From positions 416,001 to 480,000 of the forward strand of contig CAWFQK010000002.1 of NCBI GenBank assembly GCA_963817955.1: a DNA stretch of 64,000 nt. The letters are read 5' to 3'. This stretch comes from an uncultured Gemmatimonadaceae bacterium. Lineage in GTDB: Bacteria > Gemmatimonadota > Gemmatimonadetes > Gemmatimonadales > Gemmatimonadaceae. The notes below the pieces were generated by a model. That model did not search any database, had not been told where the DNA came from, and saw only the letters and a program-made list of their open reading frames with translations. Shown here piece by piece: positions 41,827 through 62,554 of the stretch. The position numbers and the translations under genes were made by a program. Numbering within the stretch: position 1 is the first letter of the stretch; every line of letters starts with the position of its first letter.

Positions 41827-44800
41827 CTACCACAAATCCCCTACCGTGATCGTCCACCGTGGCGCGATGGATCCGTGTCCCCCCAACCCGTGTCCCACGG
41901 CAAGGCCTGATTGATTCACGAAGACCGGCGCATCGAAACGCACGTAGACGTCGCGATCGTAGAGTCTTCCCCGGGCGATCAGACCTGCGCCAGCATCCGT
42001 GAGTAGCGCGTTGTCGAGCGCGATCTGCCTCGATGAGGCAATACCGGCATCGCCGAAGACGCTCACGGACAGGGAGCCGCGCCCCCACGAGCCATGCGCG
42101 CTCGCCACCTGCTGCACGACTTCCCCGTTCGCTGCCACGACGCCATCGAGCGGCACATCGAAGCCGAATCCGCGGAGACCCGCACCGCCGATCGGCAGAT
42201 AGTTCACGCCGCTCTGTTTGAGGAGTGCACCGCGCGGACGGAAGAGATCGTTGTTGAAAGTCTCGAACGGATCGGATGACGAGGCAAAGATCGCCCGCTG
42301 TCGGGGCGCGTTGTGCGCCAACCCGCCATACACGCGCACGTGGAGCTGCGAAGTCGTGCTCACGAGCGAGCGCACCAGCCCCAACGAGCCCTCGGCGCGC
42401 AGATAGCCGCGCGTTGGCTCGGCGGTCGTCGAGGAGTTGTCCGACGCCAACCCTCCGGCGAGGGAAGCCCGCACGGTCGTGTATTCGCTATCCGCAGTGA
42501 CCACGCTTCGGTAGGCGCCCGAACCACCGATTTCTGCCACGTTCGCATTCGACCACTGCTCCGGCAGCAACAGCGAGTCACTCGGCATCGCGACGGTGAC
42601 GTATGCCTTGGCCGTGATCGCCGGCCCCGGATTGAAGATGTACGGGCTCAGATCCCACTTCCGGAACACATCAAGCTTGAGCAGACCGTCGAGGTAATTG
42701 AACGCGCCGCCATAGTCCATCAGCGGGCGCTCCATTCCGGGGAGATAGAGGTTCTCCGCTCGCGCCCACACCTGCGCGCGAGTCGCGATGCTCGGCGACT
42801 GGCCGTTCGATGCGCGCGGCGCGCGCGTAGCGAATGCGATGCCGCCGTCGTAGATGTCGACTGTCGACAAATAATTGGTCTTGGCACGAATGCCGAACAC
42901 CGCGCCCTGCGGGTCGCTGTACCATGCAGCGGGCGCGAGCGCCACGATGGTGTGCGCTCGGTCGGTCTGATTGAGGTATGGCCAGTTGTACGTGATCCGC
43001 GGCTCGCGCACGCTGATCAGAAGACTGGCGTTGATGTCGTTGCGCCTATCCCAGTCCCACGTCACGTGGTTCGGGTCCGAGCTGCACCAACAGTGGGCGG
43101 TCCGGCGTGAACACGTGCACGTAACTGTGATCCATCAGCGGATCGCCCCGGGCAACCGTCCATCCCGCGGAGGTCAACACCCCGACCGGCATCGGATGCC
43201 GCAACTCGCCACGGCGGTCCACGCGCGCGATCGTCTCGTACCGCGTGCCGTCGGTATTGACGCCCACAGGTCCGAGCGCGTAGTCCATCAATCCCGTGCC
43301 GTGCACCCACTCGTCGAAGAACCAGCCGAGCGGGCGGCCGTAGGCGCGTTCGGCCGATGCGCGCATGGCGCGCTCGTCCACGTGCTTGAGCGCCCAGCGG
43401 TCATAGTAGTCATGCAGGAAGGCGTGGAACACCGTGTCGCCCATGGCATCGCGAAGCTGTCCGTACATCAACTTCGCACGATTGTAGATCATTTCGTTAT
43501 AGATCCCAAACTCGCGAAAATCGGCGGAATTCGTACCGATGGGTTGTGCGCGCCCGTGTACCTCGAGCGACCACTGCGAGAGGTTCGTGCTGTCGTTCCC
43601 CGGAATCGTGACGGCATTCACGCGATACCCCTCCGGCAGCCGCGGCGGCTCAAGCACCCGGCCGATTCGCTCCTGCGGTGTGAGACGCTGCGCCCAGTCC
43701 GTCTGGTAATCCGTGAGCCCCTCGTCCATCCAGCCAGACCTCCACTCATTGTTGGCGAGGATGCCATAGGTGAACACGTGCCCGCTTTCATGGAGAATGA
43801 GCCCCTGCGACGCCGATCCGTCCATGATCATCATGGGAAACTCGGTGCCGCCGGGATCGAGGCGATGCACGTTCGAGAGCTGCGGATAGGCGTACGGTCC
43901 CCAGATCGACTCGAGCCAACGGAGCGCGAACATCGTGCGCTCGAGCGCGCGTCCGCCGCCCCACGTGCTGTCGTCGCCTGCCTTGTACAGCACGTGCACC
44001 GCAACCGTGTCCCACGTGGGGAAATGCATCCGGCCGACGTGTCGGACATACACGCCGCCCTCATAGCGATAATCCGGCGACGCACTCCAGGCAAAATGAT
44101 GCACGTTCTCGGCAACGAATCGCACGGCGCGGTAGCCATCGGGAACCACCAGCGCACTGCCGGCCGGCTGCTCACGATAGGCGCTCGCGGCCAGATGGGG
44201 CGGTCCATTCCGCGACACCCGCGCCCATCCTGGATCGCCGGACACGGGAACACCCGTGGACGCCAGGACCTGATCGTCGCGCACGATCATGGTCACGTCG
44301 TAGGTGCCGAACTCGCCGTACAGCTCGCCGGCCGGGATGAGCGGGTTTGGTTCCCAGCCGCCGCGATCGTACACGGCGACCTTCGGATACCACTGGGCGA
44401 AATCCCACGTGCGGCCGCGGCGCCCCTGTCGGCGTGTCACCGTGGACGGACGCGCGTCCCACGCAAAGTGAATCTGCACCGAATCGCCGGGCGGGAGAGG
44501 CTTCGGCAGGCGGAAGTGCATGACGGTGCTGTCGGGCGTGCCGGGATAGTCGATGATTACCGGCGTGCCGTTGACGGTCGGCGCCTGCGTGAGTCGTTCG
44601 TAGCCGAAATTCGGTTCGGCAAGATACTGAAAGCGAACGCGGTTTTCGCGGGCGTCGGCCGCGCTCCACTTGGAGCCTGGACGAAACGCATTCAGGTACT
44701 GGTGGAAGTACATCTCACGCAGCGTGTCGGGCGATTGGTTGGTGTACACCAACGTGCCATCCGCGCGCAACTTGGTTTGCGACTCGTCGAGCGTGGCGAC

Positions 44801-44917
44801 GATCTGATAGTGCACGTGCTGCTGCCAATAGCCGGTCGTGTCGCCGGAGGGCGGTGTCGTCGCGCCCTGATAGGTGCCTTGCTGAAGCAGAGCGAGCAGT
44901 CCGAGAAGCTGAATCAT
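41827..44917 (-). CDS. Exported M1 aminopeptidase fused to a C-terminal Omp85-like beta-barrel; frameshift at ~43077
   Basis: YWQQ..Y, QWYPK..VYD, GGTEFP, HESGH-x18-E; second frame gives LRGF, FGDAG, DAGAG, RFDAP and C-terminal W; removing one base gives continuous QLDPNHVTWDWD. Confidence 0.8.
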
Positions 44918-44955
44918 GGTCGAATTGTATCTGCAAGCCCGACTAATTTCAGTGC

Positions 44956-45786
44956 ATGGCACTTTCCCGCCCCAACGCGCTCGCCCCAATTGTCGGCGGC
45001 ACCTGGCACGTCACACTCGCCGCCATCGTCCTCGTCGTCGCGGCGGCGGCGGCGATGGGGCAGACGCCGGCCACGATGCCCTCCGCGCGCGTCACGCTCC
45101 AGATCGACTCAGCCACCGTCGCGCGCTTCGATGCGCGGTCGTTCGACCTCGGCGTCACGCAACAGGCGCCATGGCCCGACGGGTCGGCGGCGGCGGCCGA
45201 GATTCAGTTCGTGAAACAGGCCGGCGCGTTCTCGGGGGACCTCATCCGTCTCGGTGCGAGCGGCGCCCGCGCGCCGTCCGGCACGATCGAGGTGCTTGAC
45301 TCGCTCGGCGCCGCGACGCTGACCGTTCACCTCAGCGACGTGGTCGTCGTTTCGGATCACATTTCGTTGTCCAGCGCTCGGGTGGCGCTCGAGCAGCAGC
45401 GCATCTCGCAGCAGGAGACGCTGACGCAGCTCAACGCCGACTCCCAGGAAGCGCAGCGGCAGCTTGCCACGGCGGAAGAACTTGGCAAGAGCCATGTCAC
45501 CACGCGCCAGGATCTGGCCCATGCGCGCGCAATAGCGTCGGAACTCCAGCAGCGTCTGGAGCTGGCGCGCCAGCGACAGGCGTTGCTCGTGCGACAACTT
45601 CAGGCGCAGGGCGCGCTGGACGAAACGGTCGTGTTGCACTTCGGCCGACTGGAAATCGACAGCCCAATGCCGGGCGGGCATGCAAGTTGGGATTTCAGCA
45701 CCGGCCGACGGACGGCGCCGACACCAGATTCGGTGTCACGGCGCGGTCCGGGGCGGCCCAACGCCGCACCGCCCCTGCGGCCGTAG
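44956..45786 (+). CDS. Exported Hcp-fold-like protein with inserted coiled-coil hairpin
   Basis: Signal peptide; SFDLGVTQ / IQFVK...SGDL....SG / LSDVVV.S / ETVVLHFGRL / WD pattern matches Hcp strand order; heptad-rich insert at aa 141-218. Confidence 0.6.
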   Translation: MALSRPNALAPIVGGTWHVTLAAIVLVVAAAAAMGQTPATMPSARVTLQIDSATVARFDARSFDLGVTQQAPWPDGSAAAAEIQFVKQAGAFSGDLIRLGASGARAPSGTIEVLDSLGAATLTVHLSDVVVVSDHISLSSARVALEQQRISQQETLTQLNADSQEAQRQLATAEELGKSHVTTRQDLAHARAIASELQQRLELARQRQALLVRQLQAQGALDETVVLHFGRLEIDSPMPGGHASWDFSTGRRTAPTPDSVSRRGPGRPNAAPPLRP

Positions 45787-46331: not shown

Positions 46332-49010
46332 TTACGGCACGACTGCCGCCTTGCTTTCCTTCTGGACCGGGTTCTTCACGTAGATGTCGAACCACGCGAT
46401 CCACCGCGCCCACTGGTCGAGGTCGGACTCGCGCGTCGCGGGGCCGTGATCCTCGTACGGGTACATGAACAACGCCGCCTGCTTCCCCTGCCCCTGCAGC
46501 GCCTGCATCATGCGAATCGAGCTGATCGGGTCGGTGCCGACGTTCTGATCTTCGAGCGAGTGGTACATGAGCAGCGCACCACTCAACCGGTCGGCATACA
46601 GGAACGGCGACATTTCGAGGTACGTGTCCTTGGCGTCCCACAACGTGCGACGTTCGTTCTGGAAGTTGAACGGCGTGAGGGTACGGTTGTACATGCCGTC
46701 GCCGGCGATGCCCGCCTTGAAGTACGGTGTGTGGGTCATCGCATTCACGGTGCTGAACGCCCCATAGCTATGGCCGCCGATTCCCACGCGACCACGGTCG
46801 AGGTAGCCAGCCTTCTCCACCGCCTCGAGGGTGAGATCGAGATCCTCGCGTAGCTCGTCCACATAATGGTCGTTCATGCGCCCAGCCGGCCCAACGATCG
46901 GGATGTCCACCGGTTGAATGACGACGTACCCCTGCGTCACCCAGATTTCAGGGCTGCGCGGCGCAACGTTGGCGAACTGATTGATGTTCGTCGTGCGACG
47001 ACGCTGATCGTACTCGGCCTGCGTCGAGAATTCCGTCGGATAGAACCAGATGATGCCCGGCAGACGCGTGCCCTCGCGATAATCCTTGGGCAGCGTGACG
47101 TCGATATAGAACTTGTAACCGTCCCGTGGACGTTCGACGAGCAAACGCTTCCGAATAGCCTGCGTCACCTCGGGCGCGACGTCCACATTCTTCGTGAGCT
47201 TCGTTTCGCTCCCGGTCTTCATGTCGCGCAAATACGAATCGGAGATCATCGACGGCGACTGCCGCAACACGATCGCCTTGTTGTAGTCGTCGTCGAGCGG
47301 CGCAACGACATCTTCCGCGACGTCACTCGTTCCTTCGTACAGACGCGTCTTCTGCCCGCTCTCGAAGTCGACGCGATCCACGAAGTTGTGCGGTGCCTGC
47401 TTGTTCCAGTCGGGGAAGTACTTGGTGCCCTCGAGAAAGACACTCTTGTTATCGGAGGCCACCCGCACGACCGGCACGCCATTCGCTCCGCGCTTTGTCT
47501 GGAGCGCTCCCGGGTTGTTGAAGAACGCCGAGTCGCTCACATTGCCGCGACCACCGCCGGCGCCACCCGCTCCACCGCGGCCGCCGCGGCCAGCAGCGAT
47601 CGAGGCGCCCTTCGCAATCTCGTAATGCTTTGCCGGATCCGCGAGACGAACCGCGTACAGATCGGTCCCCTCAGCCACGAACAGCGTCTTGCCGTCTGGG
47701 CTGAACTCGGCGGACGTGATGCGACTGTTCGCCTCGAAGATCTGTTTGGCGTCATTCGCACCAAAGGGCGGCAGCCACGTGTACAGCCGATCCTTCCGCG
47801 CCGCCGTCGCGCCGCCCCGGCCACCGCGACCGCCCGCCGGCGCTGCGCCACGTTGTCCGCCAGTGCCGGCTGCCGGCGCTTCGGACAACAGGTACACCAG
47901 ACCCGGGCCAACCGGATTCCACTGCAGGTTGCGCTTGGCAGTATCCGACTGCGCGCCGCCGCGTCCACCGAACCCGCCAGTCGAGTCGCTTCCGCCGGCC
48001 GAACCTTCGTTGAGCGGGCGCTTCGCCAGTACCGTGATCACTTTGCCAGTCGCGTCCCAGAGCTGCTCCACGGTGCCGAAACTCGTGACCTGCACGAGAT
48101 ACGAGTAGGGCCTCACTTGCAGCGTGACGCGGAAATACTGGCCATCGGGCGACGCATCGACGGCTGTGATGAGCGCCGGCGCGCCGATCTTCTTCACCGC
48201 TTTGGATTTCACATCGATGAGCGCAAGCTGACCGAGCGTGTAGTAGTCGAGTAAATCCTTGTCGTACGGGTCGCGCAGCAGGCTCGCGTAGTTGCGGTTC
48301 TGGAGCACCTTGCCCGCCTCGCTCGTGCGCACGAGCGGCCCCGTCTCGATCGCTGGCCGTTTCGGCTCGGCGGGACGGTTGTCGGGGAGTAGCACGGCAA
48401 CGATGCACTTGCTGTCCGCCGTCCAATCGAGCGTGGTCACGCGAGTGGCAAGCAACGGCGTCTTCGTGATCTGCACCGACTTGCCCGTTGCGACGTCGGC
48501 GACATAGACGTGCGTAGCCGCGTCGAAGCTGGCGATGTAGGCGATCGATTTGCCGTCGGGAGACCACGTCGCCCCATTCACTACGGCGCCTTTGGGCGTC
48601 TCGATCGCGCGCGCTGCGCCGGTGTTGGGATCGAGAATGGTGAGGCCGATGCTCCCGCGCGTGGTGAGCGCACGGACCCGATTGGCCTTGAAGTCGATCT
48701 CGAGGCCCGCGAGCCGGTAATGAGGCTTACCGAAGACGTCCACGGAGGGCAGCCCATCGTTCTCCGCCTTCAGGAAGAAGCGGTTGTCGGGGCTGGGGTT
48801 GGTGAAGGCAACGCCATTCCGCGGCGCCGTGACAATGCGCTCGACGATCTCCGGCGGCTTGACGTAAGTCTCTTTGGCGAGGACTTCCTTCGGATTCCAC
48901 CCTTGTTGGGCGACGTTCTGGGCGCCGAGAGGTAGGGCGAATGCCGCGAGACCGGCGGCGCCGATCATGAAGCGCGTCAGGAGGCGCTTCGGCGGGGAAA
49001 AGCGGTTCAT
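46332..49010 (-). CDS. Exported S9 prolyl oligopeptidase-family serine peptidase (glutamyl endopeptidase-like)
   Basis: Signal peptide; WSPDG propeller repeats; GGHSYGAF, YNRTLTPF.FQ.E.R, D.N.GT, PYEDHG. Confidence 0.92.
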   Translation of the reverse strand: MNRFSPPKRLLTRFMIGAAGLAAFALPLGAQNVAQQGWNPKEVLAKETYVKPPEIVERIVTAPRNGVAFTNPSPDNRFFLKAENDGLPSVDVFGKPHYRLAGLEIDFKANRVRALTTRGSIGLTILDPNTGAARAIETPKGAVVNGATWSPDGKSIAYIASFDAATHVYVADVATGKSVQITKTPLLATRVTTLDWTADSKCIVAVLLPDNRPAEPKRPAIETGPLVRTSEAGKVLQNRNYASLLRDPYDKDLLDYYTLGQLALIDVKSKAVKKIGAPALITAVDASPDGQYFRVTLQVRPYSYLVQVTSFGTVEQLWDATGKVITVLAKRPLNEGSAGGSDSTGGFGGRGGAQSDTAKRNLQWNPVGPGLVYLLSEAPAAGTGGQRGAAPAGGRGGRGGATAARKDRLYTWLPPFGANDAKQIFEANSRITSAEFSPDGKTLFVAEGTDLYAVRLADPAKHYEIAKGASIAAGRGGRGGAGGAGGGRGNVSDSAFFNNPGALQTKRGANGVPVVRVASDNKSVFLEGTKYFPDWNKQAPHNFVDRVDFESGQKTRLYEGTSDVAEDVVAPLDDDYNKAIVLRQSPSMISDSYLRDMKTGSETKLTKNVDVAPEVTQAIRKRLLVERPRDGYKFYIDVTLPKDYREGTRLPGIIWFYPTEFSTQAEYDQRRRTTNINQFANVAPRSPEIWVTQGYVVIQPVDIPIVGPAGRMNDHYVDELREDLDLTLEAVEKAGYLDRGRVGIGGHSYGAFSTVNAMTHTPYFKAGIAGDGMYNRTLTPFNFQNERRTLWDAKDTYLEMSPFLYADRLSGALLMYHSLEDQNVGTDPISSIRMMQALQGQGKQAALFMYPYEDHGPATRESDLDQWARWIAWFDIYVKNPVQKESKAAVVP

Positions 49011-49107
49011 TGCGTACTCCACGAATGGGGCGGCGATCGGAGGAGACATATTGGGTCAGACGAGATATACGATATACGACGCCTCGGCGCAGGACGCTGT
49101 GGCGGGG

Positions 49108-56263: not shown

Positions 56264-57457
56264 CTACGCCGCGCGCTTGGCGTGCTGCCTGACAGCCAGG
56301 AACAACACGATCGGAGCATAGATCACCAGCACGAGCAGTGGATGCACCAGATCCCGCACGCCCGCGCCCTTGAGCAGCACGTCCCGGGCGATGGTGATGA
56401 AATGGCGCACGGGATTCAGCTCCGAGACCATCTGCACCCACCCCGGCATGCTGTCGATCGGCGTGAACAGCCCGCTCATCAACAAGTACACCATCATGAC
56501 GAAGAACGTGACGAACATCGCCTGTTGCTGGGTATCGACGATCGCCGAGATATAGAGGCCAATGCCGAGGGCGGAGAGCAGGTAGATGCCTGCCGCGGCG
56601 AACAGCAGCAGAGGGTTCCCCACGATGGGCACGTGATAGACGGCAACCCCTACCGCAAGCCCCACCGCCAGATCCAGCATCGCCAGCACCCAGAACGGGA
56701 GCAGTTTGGCAATGATGAATTGGCCACGCGTGATCGGCGTGACGTTGAGCTGCTCCAGCGTGCCCACTTCCTTTTCGCGGGCGATGTTCTGCGCCGTGAG
56801 GAGGGTGCCCATCATCGTCACGAGTTGTACCAGGATTCCCGGCACCATGTAGTGGGTGTAGTCGAGCTCCGGGTTGTACCAGCTACGCCGCTGGACTTCT
56901 ATTCTTGGCACGCCGCGGATCGGTATGAGCGCGCTCACACCGCCACGCCCGCTGCCACTGGTGCTCTGCGCACGAATGGCCGCCAGGGTCGGCCGCATTT
57001 GCGTCGTCAGCTCCCCGGAGTAGGCGTCGAGAATCTGCATGGCGTATGACTGGACGATTCCCGCCGCAGTCCCCTTTTCCGCGTTCACGTCGAGCTGCAC
57101 CGGCGCCGTCCCAGTGCGTACGAGTGTGGCCTCGAAGTCGTGCGGGATCGTGAGCACGATCGTCGCCGTGCCGTGCAGCAGTGCGTCGTCCGCACTGTCG
57201 GGCGACGTCGACTGCCCAATGATGCTGAAGAACCGAGAGGCAGCGAGGCGGGTGACGACGCCGCGCGACGTACTCGTCCGGTCGTAATCGACCACGTACG
57301 CTGGCGTGGCGTGGATGGCGAAGCTAGCGACCCGGGCCAGGACCAGGAGCTGCACGATCGGCATCACCAGGATCTGCGTGAGCGTCGCGCGATCGCGCGT
57401 CACGTGGAGCACCTCCGTGCGCGCGAGAAAGAGTATCCGTCGAAGGCCGGTGTACAC
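56264..57457 (-). CDS. ABC-2 permease (YbhR-like)
   Basis: WYNPEL, VPGI, IAREKEVGTLEQLNVTP, SGLFTPI.SMP. Confidence 0.92.
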   Translation of the reverse strand: MYTGLRRILFLARTEVLHVTRDRATLTQILVMPIVQLLVLARVASFAIHATPAYVVDYDRTSTSRGVVTRLAASRFFSIIGQSTSPDSADDALLHGTATIVLTIPHDFEATLVRTGTAPVQLDVNAEKGTAAGIVQSYAMQILDAYSGELTTQMRPTLAAIRAQSTSGSGRGGVSALIPIRGVPRIEVQRRSWYNPELDYTHYMVPGILVQLVTMMGTLLTAQNIAREKEVGTLEQLNVTPITRGQFIIAKLLPFWVLAMLDLAVGLAVGVAVYHVPIVGNPLLLFAAAGIYLLSALGIGLYISAIVDTQQQAMFVTFFVMMVYLLMSGLFTPIDSMPGWVQMVSELNPVRHFITIARDVLLKGAGVRDLVHPLLVLVIYAPIVLFLAVRQHAKRAA

Positions 57458-57458
57458 G

Positions 57459-58571
57459 TCAGTCCAGCCGCGGCTTGAATGAGCGGGTGCTGATGACGAG
57501 GAGCACCAGCGTCATCGTGGCCAGGATTGCCGTCTCACGCCCGAGATACGCCAGGCCGATTCCTTTGAGCATGATCCCGCGGGAGATCGCCACAAACCAC
57601 CGGGCAGGCGACAGTACCGAGATCCACCGCAGCACGACCGGCATGCTCTCAATAGGGAAGATGAAACCGGACAACAGCACGTTCGGCAGCATCGTTCCGA
57701 GGAGCACGCCCATCATGGCCGTCCGCTGTGAATTGGTCCGCGAGGACACGAGAATTCCCACCGACAGCGACGCCAACGTGAACAACAATCCTTCTGCGAC
57801 GAGCAATGTCACGCTACCGCGCAACGGGACGTGAAAGATCAATCGCGCTTCCACCAAGATCAGTACTATGCTCAACAGCCCGATCCCGAGATACGGCGCC
57901 ACCTTGCCGACGATGATGTGCCACGGCCGGAGCGGCGAGACGAGCAGCGCCTCCATCGTCCCCGTTTCCCGCTCGCGTGCCAGCGACAGCGCGGTCATCA
58001 GCGCCGAAATGATCGTCAGCACGTACGCCATGAGTCCCGGTATGAACAGGTTCGAGCTCTCGCGCGTGGGATTGAATCGCATCCGGCTCTCCGGCGCAAT
58101 GCGTATCGCGCCGACGCCGCGCTGGGCCGCACCGAGCTCGCGCTGATAGTTCTGGATCACGGCCGCCGCGTACGCCTGGCGGGCCGCGCCGCTGTTCGGC
58201 TCTGTCGCGTCGGTGATGAGAGAAATTTGCGCCGGCAGTCCGCGTGCGAGCTGCGTGGCAAAGCCGGGCTGAAACACGACCGCTTCCTGTGCACGGTCCG
58301 TGCGGAACAGTGGCTCCAACTCGCGCTGGTCGCGCAACACCGCAACCACGCGGAACACACCGCCCGCCGTAAGCCGGGAGCGCAGATCCAGCGTCGTCGC
58401 ATCCGGCGTCGGATCCACCACCGCGAGCCGTACGTCCTGCACGTCGGTGCGAATGGAGTACCCGAACAACACCACCTCGAGCACCGGTAGCAGCACGAGC
58501 ACGGCAAGTGTGCGACGATCGCGGAGGATGTGGCGCACCTCCTTCACGAGGAGCCCGCGCAGCGCGCTCAT
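57459..58571 (-). CDS. ABC-2 permease (YbhS-like)
   Basis: KE.RHILRD.RTL, FNP, ARERETGTMEALLVSP, LSGFIFPIESMP. Confidence 0.92.
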   Translation of the reverse strand: MSALRGLLVKEVRHILRDRRTLAVLVLLPVLEVVLFGYSIRTDVQDVRLAVVDPTPDATTLDLRSRLTAGGVFRVVAVLRDQRELEPLFRTDRAQEAVVFQPGFATQLARGLPAQISLITDATEPNSGAARQAYAAAVIQNYQRELGAAQRGVGAIRIAPESRMRFNPTRESSNLFIPGLMAYVLTIISALMTALSLARERETGTMEALLVSPLRPWHIIVGKVAPYLGIGLLSIVLILVEARLIFHVPLRGSVTLLVAEGLLFTLASLSVGILVSSRTNSQRTAMMGVLLGTMLPNVLLSGFIFPIESMPVVLRWISVLSPARWFVAISRGIMLKGIGLAYLGRETAILATMTLVLLVISTRSFKPRLD

Positions 58572-59341
58572 GCGGCTTCCGTGGGCTTCACGGTTCCGTT
58601 GGCAGGCCGGGCCAGTCGCACGAACAGCTCGTCGATGCTCTCCACATCAAAGCGGCGCTTGAGCTCCGCCGGCGTGCCCAGGGCGCCGATCCGCCCCGCC
58701 ACCATGATCGAGATGCGATCGCAGTACTCCGCCTCGTCCATGTAGTGAGTCGTGACAATTGCCGTCGTTCCGGCCTGTGCGGCCTCATAGATCAATTCCC
58801 AGAACTGCCGGCGCGTCACGGGGTCCACGCCGCTCGTCGGCTCGTCGAGAAACACGATGCGGGGCTGGTGCAGCAGCGCCACCGAAAATGCCAGCTTCTG
58901 TTTCCATCCCAACGGGAGGTCTCGTACCATGGACCGCTCGGCGCGCTCGAGTCCCAGCCGTCCGAGAATCCGATGCATGCGCTCGACTATCTCGCGGTCG
59001 CTGAGGTCGTAGATCCCCCCATAGAGCACGATGTTCTCACGCACCGTGAGATCGTCGTACAGCGAGAAGCGCTGACTCATGTAGCCGATGTCCCGCTTGA
59101 TGGCTTCCGCTTCCGTGTACACGTCGTGTCCGGCCACCGTCGCATGACCGTCGCTCGGCGCGAGCAGCCCCGTCAGCATGCGCATCGCTGTCGTCTTCCC
59201 TGCGCCGTTCGCGCCAAGGAAGCCGAACACCTCGCCAACGCGAACGTCGAAGGTGATGCGGTCAACGGCGGTGAATTCGCCGAATCGCCGCGTCAGGTCG
59301 CGCGCGTCGATGGCGAGCGAAGGGCTTGCCGCGTTCGTCAT
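58568..59341 (-). CDS. ABC ATP-binding protein (YbhF C-half-like)
   Basis: GANGAGKTT, GYMSQRFSLY.DLTV, LPLGWKQK, LDEPTSGVDP. Confidence 0.95.
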   Translation of the reverse strand: MTNAASPSLAIDARDLTRRFGEFTAVDRITFDVRVGEVFGFLGANGAGKTTAMRMLTGLLAPSDGHATVAGHDVYTEAEAIKRDIGYMSQRFSLYDDLTVRENIVLYGGIYDLSDREIVERMHRILGRLGLERAERSMVRDLPLGWKQKLAFSVALLHQPRIVFLDEPTSGVDPVTRRQFWELIYEAAQAGTTAIVTTHYMDEAEYCDRISIMVAGRIGALGTPAELKRRFDVESIDELFVRLARPANGTVKPTEAA

Positions 59342-60312
59342 GCGGCCTCCCCGGGTGTTGCAGCGTCTTCTCCCTCAGGGGCACCCATGCGGGCGATGAA
59401 CACGTCTTCGATCGTCGGCGACGTGGGCGACACCTCGGCCCCAGCGATCCCTTCGGACGCCAGAAAGGCGCCCAACTCCCGCTGCACAACGTCCGCGGAC
59501 ACATCGGCCCGCTCGTCGGTGTAGTGCAGCGCTTCGCCGAATGGGTACACGGAGTGCGCGTGGGCAAAGCGACGCACCGCGCCCAGTGTGCGATACCGCT
59601 CCGGCGCGCGTACGGCGAACAGCGGCCGCTCGAAAGAGCGGATGATCGCGGCGGGCGTGTCGATGGCCAGGATGTGCCCGCGCTGGATGAGCGCGACGCG
59701 ATCGCAGCGCGTCGCCTCATCCATGTACGGCGTCGATACGACGATCGTGAGACCGGACTTCCTGAGCTCTGCCAGCAGATCCCAGAACTCCCGTCGGGAT
59801 ACCGCATCCACACCGGTCGTGGGCTCATCGAGCAGGAGCAGCTCCGGCCGGTGCACGAGCGCGCAGCAGAGCGCGAGCTTCTGCTTCATGCCCCCGGACA
59901 ACGCGGCGGCGCGCCGATCTTTGAACGCCACGAGCTGGTCATATATAGGCGCGATTCGCGCGTACTGGTCCTCGATCGTCGTTCCGAATACCGATGCGAA
60001 GAAGCGCAGGTTCTCCTCCACGCTGAGATCGGGATACAGCGAGAACCGTCCCGGCATGTAGCCGAGTCGTTTGCGAAGATCCCACATGTCGGTCACGACG
60101 TCGCGTCCCAACACCTGCGCCTGACCCTCGTCGGCTACCACGAGCGTGGCAAGAATGCGGAACAGTGTCGTCTTCCCTGCTCCATCGGGGCCGATGAAGC
60201 CGAACAGCTCTCCGGGGGCCACACTGAACGACACGCCGGCGAGCGCCGTCGTCGTCGCGTACCGCTTGGCGACGTCATGCACCTCGACGGCCGCGCCCGC
60301 TGACGTCGTCAC
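59338..60312 (-). CDS. ABC ATP-binding protein (YbhF N-half-like)
   Basis: GPDGAGKTT, GYMPGRFSLY, LSGGMKQK, LDEPTTGVD. Confidence 0.95.
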   Translation of the reverse strand: MTTSAGAAVEVHDVAKRYATTTALAGVSFSVAPGELFGFIGPDGAGKTTLFRILATLVVADEGQAQVLGRDVVTDMWDLRKRLGYMPGRFSLYPDLSVEENLRFFASVFGTTIEDQYARIAPIYDQLVAFKDRRAAALSGGMKQKLALCCALVHRPELLLLDEPTTGVDAVSRREFWDLLAELRKSGLTIVVSTPYMDEATRCDRVALIQRGHILAIDTPAAIIRSFERPLFAVRAPERYRTLGAVRRFAHAHSVYPFGEALHYTDERADVSADVVQRELGAFLASEGIAGAEVSPTSPTIEDVFIARMGAPEGEDAATPGEAA

Positions 60313-61235
60313 CGGGCTGCGACCACTGGCACAAATCGCACGTCCGCGGGCATGCCAATCTTTAGAATACCTTTCTCGTTGGGCACGCGGATCTTGATCG
60401 CGTACACGAGATTACGCCGCTCGTCGACCGTCTGGATGGGGGTTGGCGTGAACTCAGCGTCAGACGAGATCCACGACACCTGGCCAGGCAGCGACAGCCG
60501 CGGTTCGGATCCGTTCGCCACGTCCACCGTGACCCGAGCCTCCTGGCCGAGCCGCACGTGTGCGAGCTGAGGTTCGGTGACGTAGGCACGGAGCTCCAGC
60601 GTGTCGAGATTCGCGATCTTGTATAGCGGCTGGCCGGGCTGGACGAACTCCCCCGCCTTGGTGTAGGTGGCCAGCACCGTTCCGCTCACCGGATTCGACA
60701 CCGCGCTCCGCGTGATCTGATCGCGCACCTGCGCCATGCGGGCGGCGTTCGACGCAACATCCTGGGTGGCGGACTGGCGCTGCGCGTGTGCAGCGTCGAG
60801 TTGCGCGCCGAGAACACGGAAGTCGCGCTCGGCCTGATCGAGCTGTTGAGCGGTGGCGGCTTTCTGGTCGAACAGCCGACGCGTGCGGTCGTACGTCCGC
60901 TGTGCGATCTGGCGCTGCACCTCCAGCACGCCGATCTGTTGCGTCACTTCGTTGACGTGCGACGCCGCGCCCGAGCGTTGTGCGAACACCTGCTGCAGTT
61001 GGAGCAGCAGCGGCGTCGTATCGATCACCGCCATCGGCACGCCGGCCGCAAGCCGATTCCCCTCCACCGGAACGAATTTCAGCAGACGCCCCGACGTCTC
61101 GGCGCCGACGACGACTTCTGTGGCCTCCATGTTCCCATAGGCATCGGGAGCGGGACCGCGCGCGCAACCGGCCAGCGCGAGCATCGCGACGAGCCCACTC
61201 ACCGTGTGCCTCGACTGAGTCCAGAACATGTTCAA
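60309..61235 (-). CDS. HlyD-family periplasmic adaptor (YbhG-like)
   Basis: Lipobox LAGC; lipoyl halves, alpha-hairpin, AEFTP..IQT..ER..LVY, LKIGMP. Confidence 0.93.
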   Translation of the reverse strand: MNMFWTQSRHTVSGLVAMLALAGCARGPAPDAYGNMEATEVVVGAETSGRLLKFVPVEGNRLAAGVPMAVIDTTPLLLQLQQVFAQRSGAASHVNEVTQQIGVLEVQRQIAQRTYDRTRRLFDQKAATAQQLDQAERDFRVLGAQLDAAHAQRQSATQDVASNAARMAQVRDQITRSAVSNPVSGTVLATYTKAGEFVQPGQPLYKIANLDTLELRAYVTEPQLAHVRLGQEARVTVDVANGSEPRLSLPGQVSWISSDAEFTPTPIQTVDERRNLVYAIKIRVPNEKGILKIGMPADVRFVPVVAAR

Positions 61236-62554
61236 TGCACCTCCAAGCCAAGCGTCGTCAAGAAGTGGGCGCGCGTCTGCGTGAGGTCTATACGATGCTG
61301 CGCGCGCGCCAGTCGAGCGGTGAGCAGATCGGTGCTACGGTCGGTGTAGTCGGCGGCCGTCACGACTCCTTCTTCGAACCGAATGCGCGTCTCGCGCTCC
61401 ACCAATTCACGCAGGGCAATGATCCGGTCGTCGGCGGCGAGCGTGGAGTCGAGCCGTGCGATGGTGGAGACGTCGCTCTCGATGCTCCGCCGGATCTGGC
61501 GCGTGAATGCCGCCTCGTTGGTGGTCACGATGTCCCGCTGTAATGCGAGGACCTCACGATCGCGCGATGTCGAGCCCCACGTCCAAGGCATCCACTGCAC
61601 CTGCAGACCCGCCAACCAATACGTCTCGAAGCTGGTGTTCAGCATGTTGAGTCCGGGACGTCCGTAGCCCCACCGGCCAAACGCCGAGAGCTTTGGCTTG
61701 TCCTGCGCGGCATCGACGGTTTCCTGCGTCGACAGACGCGCACGAGTGGCGGCAAACTGCGCATACTCCGGCCGGGAGCGGAGCCCATCGACCGCATTCG
61801 AAGCTTGCGCCGATTCAGCCACGAGATCCGAATATCCAAGACGTACGTCGTCCGCGACGGGCCGCCCGATCAGATCTCCGAGCCGCGCCAGCGCGGCGTG
61901 TCGGTCGGCGCCAAGCTGCAGTGAGTCTTGCTGGCGCTGTAGCAGCGTCGCGGCAAGAATGGCCGTGTCGCTCGGCAATGCCGTGCCACCGCGCACACGA
62001 TCGCGCGCATCGCGGAGCCGCTCCCGGAGGTCCTGCATCGCAATCTCGACCTCCGTGGACCTTGCCTGTAGCGACGCGGCAGCAAAGAATGCGTCGTTCA
62101 CCTCCTGGCGTAGTCCAAAGAGAGTGGCGCGTACCTGCGACTCCGATTCCGCGAGCTGCGTGCGCTCGAGCGCTTCGCGTGGGGAGATGGTGGGGTCGAG
62201 GATCGGTTGCTGCGCGTTGACGTGTCCGTCGTACGTATCGTGCGGCTGCGTGGGGATGTGCAGATTGGGCGGAAGCGCTGCGCTGAAGCCCGTGACATCG
62301 GATTGATACTGTCCCTGTCCATTGATGCTGAGCGCTGGATACCAGCTCGTGGCCAACGTGCGCAGCCGAAGCGCGGATTGACGCGCTTGAAGCTCGAGCT
62401 GCCGGCCGCGCGGATCCGCCGCCACCGCTTGGACCTGGGCGATGCCGAGCGACAGGGAATCGCCGGCGATGGTCTGCTGTGCATTTAGCTGCGGCGTATG
62501 CACCGCAAGCATTGCGGCGCCGGCGAGCGCGGTGATCTGGTGCGTTGCTCTCAT
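61232..62554 (-). CDS. TolC-family outer-membrane efflux protein
   Basis: Signal peptide; two OEP repeats (YP.LS..G, RPE, KP.LS.FG). Confidence 0.9.
   Translation of the reverse strand: MRATHQITALAGAAMLAVHTPQLNAQQTIAGDSLSLGIAQVQAVAADPRGRQLELQARQSALRLRTLATSWYPALSINGQGQYQSDVTGFSAALPPNLHIPTQPHDTYDGHVNAQQPILDPTISPREALERTQLAESESQVRATLFGLRQEVNDAFFAAASLQARSTEVEIAMQDLRERLRDARDRVRGGTALPSDTAILAATLLQRQQDSLQLGADRHAALARLGDLIGRPVADDVRLGYSDLVAESAQASNAVDGLRSRPEYAQFAATRARLSTQETVDAAQDKPKLSAFGRWGYGRPGLNMLNTSFETYWLAGLQVQWMPWTWGSTSRDREVLALQRDIVTTNEAAFTRQIRRSIESDVSTIARLDSTLAADDRIIALRELVERETRIRFEEGVVTAADYTDRSTDLLTARLARAQHRIDLTQTRAHFLTTLGLEVH

Follow-up and report, generated by a model that had tools for sequence, protein, structure and literature searches.

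An apparently exported Hcp-like protein family of Gemmatimonadota with an inserted alpha-hairpin homologous to that of MacA-type adaptors

What use might a bacterium have for an apparently exported protein that joins the fold of a secretion tube to a helical hairpin of the kind found in efflux adaptors? The question is raised by a gene at positions 44956..45786 (+) of a 64,000-nucleotide stretch of an uncultured, soil-type Gemmatimonadaceae genome (GenBank GCA_963817955.1, contig CAWFQK010000002.1), referred to here as the window. The gene encodes a predicted leader, a beta-core with the fold of Hcp, the tube protein of type VI secretion systems (T6SS), an alpha-hairpin inserted into that core, and a disordered tail. 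The best explanation of this chimera, which is given about an even chance of being right, is that an exported Hcp ring bearing MacA-type hairpins would act as a free-standing ring docking onto outer-membrane factors (OMFs), either as a cap or regulator of these channels or as an opener.

The open reading frame (ORF) lies at exactly the coordinates given in the original prediction, holds 276 codons plus a stop, and has a GC content of 69% (82% at third codon positions) against 64% for the window. In a collection clustered at 90%, 94 other homologues of 158-291 aa were found at E<=1e-3; where the source gives a name, they are listed as 'hypothetical protein' from Gemmatimonadaceae or Gemmatimonas metagenome-assembled genomes. 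A HMMER search over 1.84 billion cluster representatives returned 53 matches at E<=0.001, 40 of them at E<=1e-10. By these counts it is a genuine, conserved gene of a small family. Relatives were compared in a close alignment (A1) and in a wide alignment of 58 members with identities down to 26%. A search for longer fused forms of the chimera found none, which is weak evidence, and an ESM Atlas query with a homologue gave no usable match.

An AlphaFold2 model built with an alignment of 38 sequences (mean pLDDT 82.1, core and hairpin blocks mostly above 90) divides the beta-core into two parts. The N-terminal part (45079..45366 (+), aa 42-137) comprises strands 44-49, 55-66 and 81-88, a helix at 93-102, and strands 105-114 and 120-137; the C-terminal part (45616..45699 (+), aa 221-248) comprises strands 222-229, 231-235 and 242-246 and contains the invariant E223. 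The peptides from which an Hcp strand order had been proposed are present in that order, with FDARSFDLGVTQ at aa 58, EIQFVKQ... at 82, LTVHLSDVVVVS at 122, LDETVVLHFGRLEID at 221 and ASWDF at 243, and the quoted hairpin tip is at 166.

Both structure searches placed Hcp first, as the original prediction had expected of the fold. Foldseek against the PDB listed Hcp or Hcp-containing entries at ranks 1-45 (E 2e-6 to 1e-4, prob 1.00), with TM values normalised by target of 0.57-0.74, a long fusion chain excepted. VIA-align, which is independent of Foldseek, was run against 48,161 representative chains, and its top 10 were all Hcp or T6SS tube proteins (Z 12.5-15.7, rmsd 2.6-3.6 A); these matches cover model residues about 41-251 and so lie on both sides of the insert. 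Among solved structures the family profile matched P. aeruginosa Hcp1 (1Y12) best, at E 0.026 and in two segments either side of the insert, and hhalign of the family against ten PF05638 proteins gave 97.6% with E 2.9e-12. A match to Pfam T6SS_HCP (PF05638) had also been expected: it was obtained at E<=1 for 20 of 38 relatives (best 2.3e-7), but the chimera alone (P0001) missed the gathering cut-off, with 14 against 23.5 bits and E 0.064. Uup, returned by a single-sequence PDB search, was rejected as a coiled-coil chance match (E 2.2). On the combined evidence of model and profiles, the core has an Hcp/tail-tube fold and is remotely homologous to Hcp. With Hcp itself (1Y12; EAEC Hcp1, 4HKH) it shares the beta-core (Z up to 15.7, rmsd about 3 A over 111-133 aligned residues) and a predicted lateral strand-to-strand contact as between subunits of the ring, but the chimera has in addition a Sec-type leader and a hairpin in a strand turn, and the canonical stretch between strands 1 and 2 is missing from it.

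The inserted antiparallel alpha-hairpin spans 83 residues (45367..45615 (+), aa 138-220) and occupies the turn between two long strands of the core. A coiled coil at aa 141-218 between Hcp strands had been predicted, and the model bears this out, with strands within 44-137, helices at 140-178 and 184-217, and strands within 222-246. To trace its relatives, a profile of 29 family members was run over 401 genomes sampled from the phylum. Matches at E<=1e-5 were found in 150 of them, full-length only in the window's genome (G000) and in G283; nearly all other matches covered profile positions about 135-215, the hairpin, in frames about 415-450 aa long, most genomes having a single such frame. Twenty-nine such frames, the best-scoring subset of these membrane fusion proteins (MFPs), were excised by exact match coordinates. 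A hairpin-only HMM matched them with i-E values of 1.3e-11 to 1.5e-20, and in 20 of the 29 the match placed 77 residues over 77 model positions, which means that the hairpins are of equal length.

The same positions are conserved on both sides: L145 (53/58 in the family, 29/29 in the MFPs), R149 (48/58, 26/29), A166 (57/58, 29/29), R168 (58/58, 29/29), L176 (58/58, 27/29 plus 2 Met), V/L181 (49/58, 29/29), T/S183 (49/58, 23/29), R200 (56/58, 28/29) and R207 (50/58, 28/29). Genomes flagged as unpublished are the source of two MFP frames among the 29 (L018, G157; L037, G182). Both are included in the 401-genome tallies and in the tree described below, but no claim depends on these two alone; without them L145, A166, R168 and L181 are found in 27/27, L176 in 25/27, and R200 and R207 in 26/27 each. 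Among the 31,098 stop-to-stop frames of the window's genome, in which HlyD_3 has 20 matches, the hairpin HMM matched the chimera itself (3.2e-28), one MFP (1.4e-8) and one marginal MFP (0.38). An HMM of the reversed alignment gave no match at E<=10 in the same genome, which argues against composition or a generic coiled coil as the cause.

The matching MFPs bear HlyD_3 and HlyD_D23 domains, and in all five loci examined the MFP gene is followed by an ABC ATPase and then by 1-3 duplicated MacB_PCD/FtsX permeases, with an OEP gene adjacent in one of the five; behind the matching adaptor of the window's own genome lies a MacB/DarD-type ATPase. From this operon order they are therefore MacA-type adaptors, and by sequence the hairpin of the chimera is homologous to the hairpin of this one adaptor group of Gemmatimonadota. 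The adaptor origin of the hairpin had been correctly anticipated, but not its close relative. The HlyD string quoted as its parallel does occur at aa 111 of the HlyD ORF at 60309-61235 (-), but the hairpin HMM did not match that protein at E<=10, and the close relative, a MacA-type adaptor, is encoded on another contig. This adaptor and its ABC ATPase (contig C5, L038:8959-14596) have a sigma-54 response regulator and a histidine kinase behind them, and a scan of 8 ORFs of that stretch recognised neither a MacB-type permease nor an OMF.

A maximum-likelihood tree of 87 hairpins (unrooted, 82 columns) contains one branch, with support 99/91, that parts the 58 chimera hairpins from the 29 MFP hairpins, as is consistent with a single capture. 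For the hairpin alone, comparison by VIA-align ranked HlyD (Z 11.8) and MacA (Z 11.1) first; unrelated helical hairpins score about 10, so the structural match of the hairpin alone is not discriminating. On MacA (5NIK chain D) it superposes on residues 97-179 with an rmsd of 1.6 A over 83 aligned residues. In five MFP frames (G146:C35, G264:C55, G385:C49, G099:C31 and G392:C1) the profile match starts at 92-93 rather than at about 135 and reaches into the strand region ahead of the hairpin; this may be a chance extension, or more than the hairpin may have been captured.

The hairpin tip (45457..45504 (+), aa 168-183) carries the invariant R168 and L176 and, in most members, T/S183, giving a pattern R-x7-L-x6-[ST] that is related to the RLS/RLT TolC-binding motif. 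One study defines RxxxLxxxxxxS/T as the motif through which the hairpin tips of MacA, AcrA, MexA and HlyD meet the tip of TolC (PMC3391258), and a legend in a review mentions this RLS motif together with the nanotube that the hairpins of hexameric MacA form (PMC8277102). In the chimera, L176 and T/S183 fit the L-x6-S/T spacing, with helix 1 ending at 178 and helix 2 starting at 184 in the model, and at L-8, a further turn back along the same helix face, stands the invariant Arg, which has the same placement in the 29 related adaptors. Judged by these residues, the RLS/RLT motif is present in part, in a local form common to the related adaptors. Core and hairpin are both kept in 58/58 members, even at 26% identity; R168, L176 and E223 are invariant in the wide alignment, and 9 of the 12 invariant columns of the close alignment fall in the hairpin, with R142 at its base. 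This pattern of conservation places the hairpin under strong constraint.

The chimera is predicted to be exported, in a Sec-dependent manner, and is probably periplasmic. A heuristic call assigns the Sec-type leader to aa 1-35 (44956..45060 (+)), with one Arg ahead of a hydrophobic run that extends to aa 35, a hydrophobic helix at aa 18-33 in the AlphaFold2 model, and a likely cleavage site, again heuristic, between AMG and Q36, the latter conserved in at least 90% of members. At least 15 residues precede the first strand in 56 of the 58 members, the remaining two being fragments, so that the signal peptide and insert expected to be retained in homologues are found in 56/58 and 58/58, respectively. 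An 11-residue window with a mean Kyte-Doolittle hydropathy of at least 1.8 is present in 54 of the 56 leaders, an [AVSGT]x[AGS]-Q site in 34, and a lipobox-like string in two. Leaders of a distant clade (P0103-P0139; the G283 copy, L009:1456-2196) begin directly at the hydrophobic run and lead into linkers rich in Pro, Thr and Asp, in which D-T or D-S pairs recur; their form may reflect miscalled starts, or a different targeting signal or tether. At the other end of the protein, a low-confidence Pro/Arg-rich tail (45700..45783 (+), aa 249-276) varies in length and is absent in many relatives. A common C-terminal ...(S)LRP or RP is seen in the window copy (aa 269-276, 45760-45783) and in P0002-P0005, P0008, P0077 and P0081, the rest of the tail being variable, and both the tail and the last strand are missing in the distant clade.

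A leader-bearing Hcp without the hairpin also exists. Four close members of an insert-free Sec-Hcp group of Gemmatimonadaceae were found (P0144-P0147; named 'type VI secretion system tube protein Hcp' by NCBI). The group is likewise orphan, has the same leader type, has also lost the canonical segment between strands 1 and 2, and has a core recognised by the family profile (6.6e-11); it differs from the chimera in having a short loop in place of the hairpin and in passing the Pfam Hcp cut-off, with 46.9 bits for the example from G214. The likely order of events, as read from these relatives, is that an Hcp gained a leader and lost the strand 1-2 segment, and that a single insertion of a MacA-type hairpin then followed. 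This insert-free example from G214 (158 aa, L039:8082-8558 (+)), a genome with no VipB match, follows an OPT oligopeptide transporter encoded on the same strand (L039:5766-8030 (+)), with 52 bp between the two. A protein of 236 aa in G258 (L040:7414-8124 (-)) starts with a hydrophobic leader, which a linker of some 70 residues joins to a canonical Hcp domain (PF05638, 145 bits), and its genome likewise has no VipB match; it adds to the phylum a second kind of Hcp that is apparently exported.

Self-association was predicted by modelling four copies of aa 40-250 with the family alignment in three runs. The score was 0.65 (runs 0.63, 0.65 and 0.65) against 0.00 for the best control, contacts agreed by at least 84% between runs, and partner pLDDT was at least 77; the score mark is reached by 20 of 30 proteins solved as one-chain pairs and by 1 of 23 solved as single chains. 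The predicted contacts are cyclic, a copy meeting two different neighbours through opposite faces: its strand 130-138 is paired with strand 61-68 of the adjoining copy, and helix 143-172 runs against helix 185-214 of a neighbour almost as far as the tip, as expected of a ring with a closed helical barrel and not of splayed tentacles. Cyclic self-association with hairpin-hairpin packing is predicted by the model, and a sixfold stoichiometry is inferred by analogy: since Hcp is hexameric and adaptor hairpin barrels are hexameric, six hairpins would be presented. Engineered Hcp1 fusions, which were among the structure-search matches (GspE-Hcp1, 4KSR/4KSS; Vps4-Hcp1, 6AP1; TrwK-Hcp1, 7O42), are comparable in that an Hcp ring imposes sixfold assembly on its partner, but they are end-to-end fusions made in the laboratory, whereas the chimera is a natural insertion within the fold and is found family-wide.

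Taken together, these features suggest the following mechanism for an OMF-docking ring. An exported Hcp beta-core that assembles laterally into a ring would carry a hairpin acquired in a single event from the MacA-type adaptor of a MacB-like ABC pump, and within the ring neighbouring hairpins would line up as a helical barrel resembling the nanotube of hexameric MacA. Such a barrel would show L176 and T/S183, with R168 one turn further back, to the periplasmic tip of a trimeric TolC-like OMF, six hairpins meeting the six helix pairs of the trimer. With the MacA-type adaptors of about 420 aa the chimera shares a hairpin that is homologous in sequence, equal in length and conserved at the same positions, including the tip, and its hairpins are predicted to pack side by side as theirs do. 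It differs from them in having no HlyD_3, HlyD_D23 or Biotin_lipoyl match at E<=10, and hence no lipoyl, beta-barrel or membrane-proximal domains; in that 54 of 56 leaders carry neither a membrane anchor nor a lipobox; and in having no transporter or OMF in its operon, the Hcp ring standing in place of the adaptor's own ring-forming domains. NCBIfam EmrA scored 15.9 bits over the hairpin, against a cut-off of 390.8. Lacking both these domains and a transporter partner, the docking ring would therefore be free-standing and energy-independent, and would either occupy idle channels in the role of cap or regulator or, in that of an opener, join the Hcp lumen to the channel. Docking, its consequence and the periplasmic location are all inferred, as are the functions raised by the original prediction, those of a TolC adaptor, channel or chaperone; the structural part of that prediction, an orphan Hcp-fold protein with a leader and an inserted adaptor hairpin, is borne out in full.

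A stronger claim, put forward tentatively and held to be clearly the less probable, is that the family would constitute a new class of free-standing adaptor, in which an Hcp hexamer scaffolds six MacA-derived hairpins placed tip-to-tip on a TolC-like channel with no inner-membrane pump. Such a pump-free, two-component device would either hold the channel open through the Hcp lumen, as a passive route for peptides or small proteins, or cap it. If true, this would be the first use of a tail-tube fold outside contractile and phage-tail machines, and the first transporter-free adaptor.

Several observations weigh against the OMF-docking ring. The family is rare, a full-length member being present in two of the 401 sampled genomes of the phylum. 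The leader calls are heuristic, an AxA-Q-type site is found in only 34 of 56 leaders, and the distant clade has no K/R ahead of the hydrophobic run. At the tip, the canonical Arg is absent at L-4, where 34 of 58 members have Thr, and R168 is not free in the model but sits in the hairpin-hairpin interface, so the conservation of the tip could serve folding or barrel assembly alone. The calibration of the self-association score is rough here, having been made on two copies and with other alignments; four copies were modelled, and the high score may reflect a memory of solved Hcp hexamers. Finally, no OMF or transporter gene is a conserved neighbour across the 9 family loci considered (the window, L001-L007 and the G283 locus, L041).

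The neighbourhoods themselves differ. In the window the gene lies between an M1-family peptidase (43046-44920 (-)) and an S9 peptidase (46332-49049 (-)), with a 71-codon ORF before the latter. Taken at its longest, from a start at 44989, the frame of the divergent M1 peptidase runs over the beginning of the chimera at 44956; a likelier Met at 44920 would set the two starts about 35 bp apart. A promoter scan found a single promoter-like site, on the minus strand at 44952-44924, and a terminator-like site at chance level. No RNA run is recorded for the stretch, and four DNA runs, all from one study, are recorded with small shares. Synteny is common to the window, L001, L002 and, in part, L007, all of them close relatives; a 412-aa ORF at 41827-43065 (-), syntenic at 71-73% identity in L001 and L002, has no Pfam match at E<=0.001. 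Elsewhere the neighbours are DUF3108 and a downstream OPT transporter (L004), DsrE and an MFS transporter (L005), MOSC and a racemase (L006) or a MacB-type permease (L041), and none was recognised in L003. With synteny limited to close relatives and the other loci differing, no functional partner can be inferred from context, and the neighbourhood conservation looked for after the original prediction does not reach beyond close relatives. The OPT transporters beside the G214 and L004 copies and the M1 and S9 peptidases in the window may reflect a peptide-metabolism theme, or chance in peptidase-rich genomes. The window's own TolC-HlyD-ABC operon (56264-62554 (-)) was considered as a partner and rejected as unrelated to the gene: over 10 kb separate the two, ATP synthase genes lie in front of the operon, and its HlyD is unmatched by the hairpin HMM. 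The genome as a whole has 33 OEP half-domain matches, equivalent to about 17 proteins.

The absence of OMF linkage from every neighbourhood favours instead an exported ring or pore-like structural protein in which the hairpin is an oligomerisation or spacer element and the role is independent of OMFs, whether as an envelope scaffold, as a secreted lumen-binding carrier or in a peptide-related process. The interface position of R168 and of many conserved helix residues in the model fits such a protein, as do the insert-free Sec-Hcp group, which shows that an exported Hcp ring is of use even when no hairpin is present, and the peptidase or OPT-transporter genes that adjoin three of the loci looked at. 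This reading is nonetheless judged unlikely, since it leaves unexplained why the tip residues matching the L and S/T of the TolC-binding motif are kept in all or most members (L176 in 58/58, T/S183 in 49/58) and are the same as in working adaptors, and why the hairpin equals theirs in length in 20 of 29 cases.

Distinctly improbable is a jellyfish-type periplasmic holdase, in which the hairpins would splay as tentacles and clamp unfolded outer-membrane or secreted clients, in the manner of Skp (a trimer) or prefoldin (a hexamer). The architecture invites the comparison: in Skp/OmpH, which is periplasmic, and in prefoldin, an oligomeric beta-body likewise has a long helical hairpin inserted in each subunit, and Hcp rings are known to chaperone effectors within their lumen. 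OmpH is moreover the second most frequent Pfam match among the relatives, although at sub-threshold level (4/38, best E 0.019, and no PF03938 match for the chimera itself), and prefoldin is among the hairpin matches (2zdi, Z 9.9), at a level, Z around 10, that is not discriminating for a helical hairpin. The homology of the hairpin is specific to MacA-type adaptors and not to Skp, the four-copy model packs the hairpins nearly to the tip instead of splaying them, and the genome already encodes a genuine Skp/OmpH (103.5 bits).

Less probable again is that the protein modulates a cognate MacAB-type pump, its hairpins co-assembling or competing with those of the related adaptor rather than binding an OMF. 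The helix-helix interface positions are common to that one adaptor group, and both genomes with a full-length member also carry the adaptor; the adaptor group is, however, present in about 150 of the 401 genomes, nearly all without the chimera, so that co-presence in two of two says little. No linkage to a pump operon was seen save for the MacB-type permease beside the G283 copy, of a kind that is numerous in these genomes, and both faces of the hairpin are already satisfied in the homo-oligomer model.

A genuine but divergent tube component of a T6SS or other contractile injection system is scarcely credible: it has in its favour the Hcp fold and homology and the T6SS sheath gene of G283 (VipB, 461 bits), the genome of a distant member, but the Sec leader would take the protein out of the compartment in which tubes are built, the cytoplasm, one strand turn of the ring is occupied by a hairpin of 83 residues, and no T6SS neighbour was found in any of the 9 family loci. 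Whereas T6SS Hcp is cytoplasmic, has no signal peptide and has sheath, spike and baseplate genes in the same genome, the chimera has a leader, and searches of its genome (94.13% complete, 9 contigs) gave no match to VipA, VipB, Phage_GPD, phage sheath or VgrG; the gene, noted as an orphan within the window, is thus an orphan of the genome in these respects. The sole contractile-system signal is a sub-threshold GPW_gp25 match (22.3 against 27.2 bits) at G000:C2:892119-892286 (-), inside a 654-aa frame. A PF05638 search of the genome returned nothing at E<=1, not even the gene of the chimera; the search is evidently insensitive to divergent Hcp, and its blank result is weak evidence.

The OMF-docking ring is therefore retained as the preferred reading, at the even chance given above. 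The chimera lacks defining features of both the Hcp and the adaptor family and hence belongs to neither in a functional sense. Among the papers listed by full-text literature searches, none was seen to describe an Hcp that has both a leader and a coiled-coil or adaptor insert; each part is known, their combination is apparently undescribed, and it would make a new adaptor class if OMF docking were shown.

Hcp has so far been understood within cytoplasmic contractile injection systems, and adaptor hairpins within tripartite pumps tied to a transporter. The family described here points to export of the Hcp ring and its reuse in the cell envelope, whether or not a hairpin is present, and indicates that a hairpin of the OMF-docking kind can be maintained under strong constraint when all other adaptor parts are absent. 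It is small and compact, at about 210 mature residues, which suits structural and binding tests, and if the ring docks TolC-like channels it would provide a natural, soluble, self-assembling probe of the adaptor-channel interface. Were docking true, it would raise the question of whether OMFs have opening and closing partners that are independent of pumps, with a bearing on envelope permeability, the regulation of efflux and the gating of the channels.

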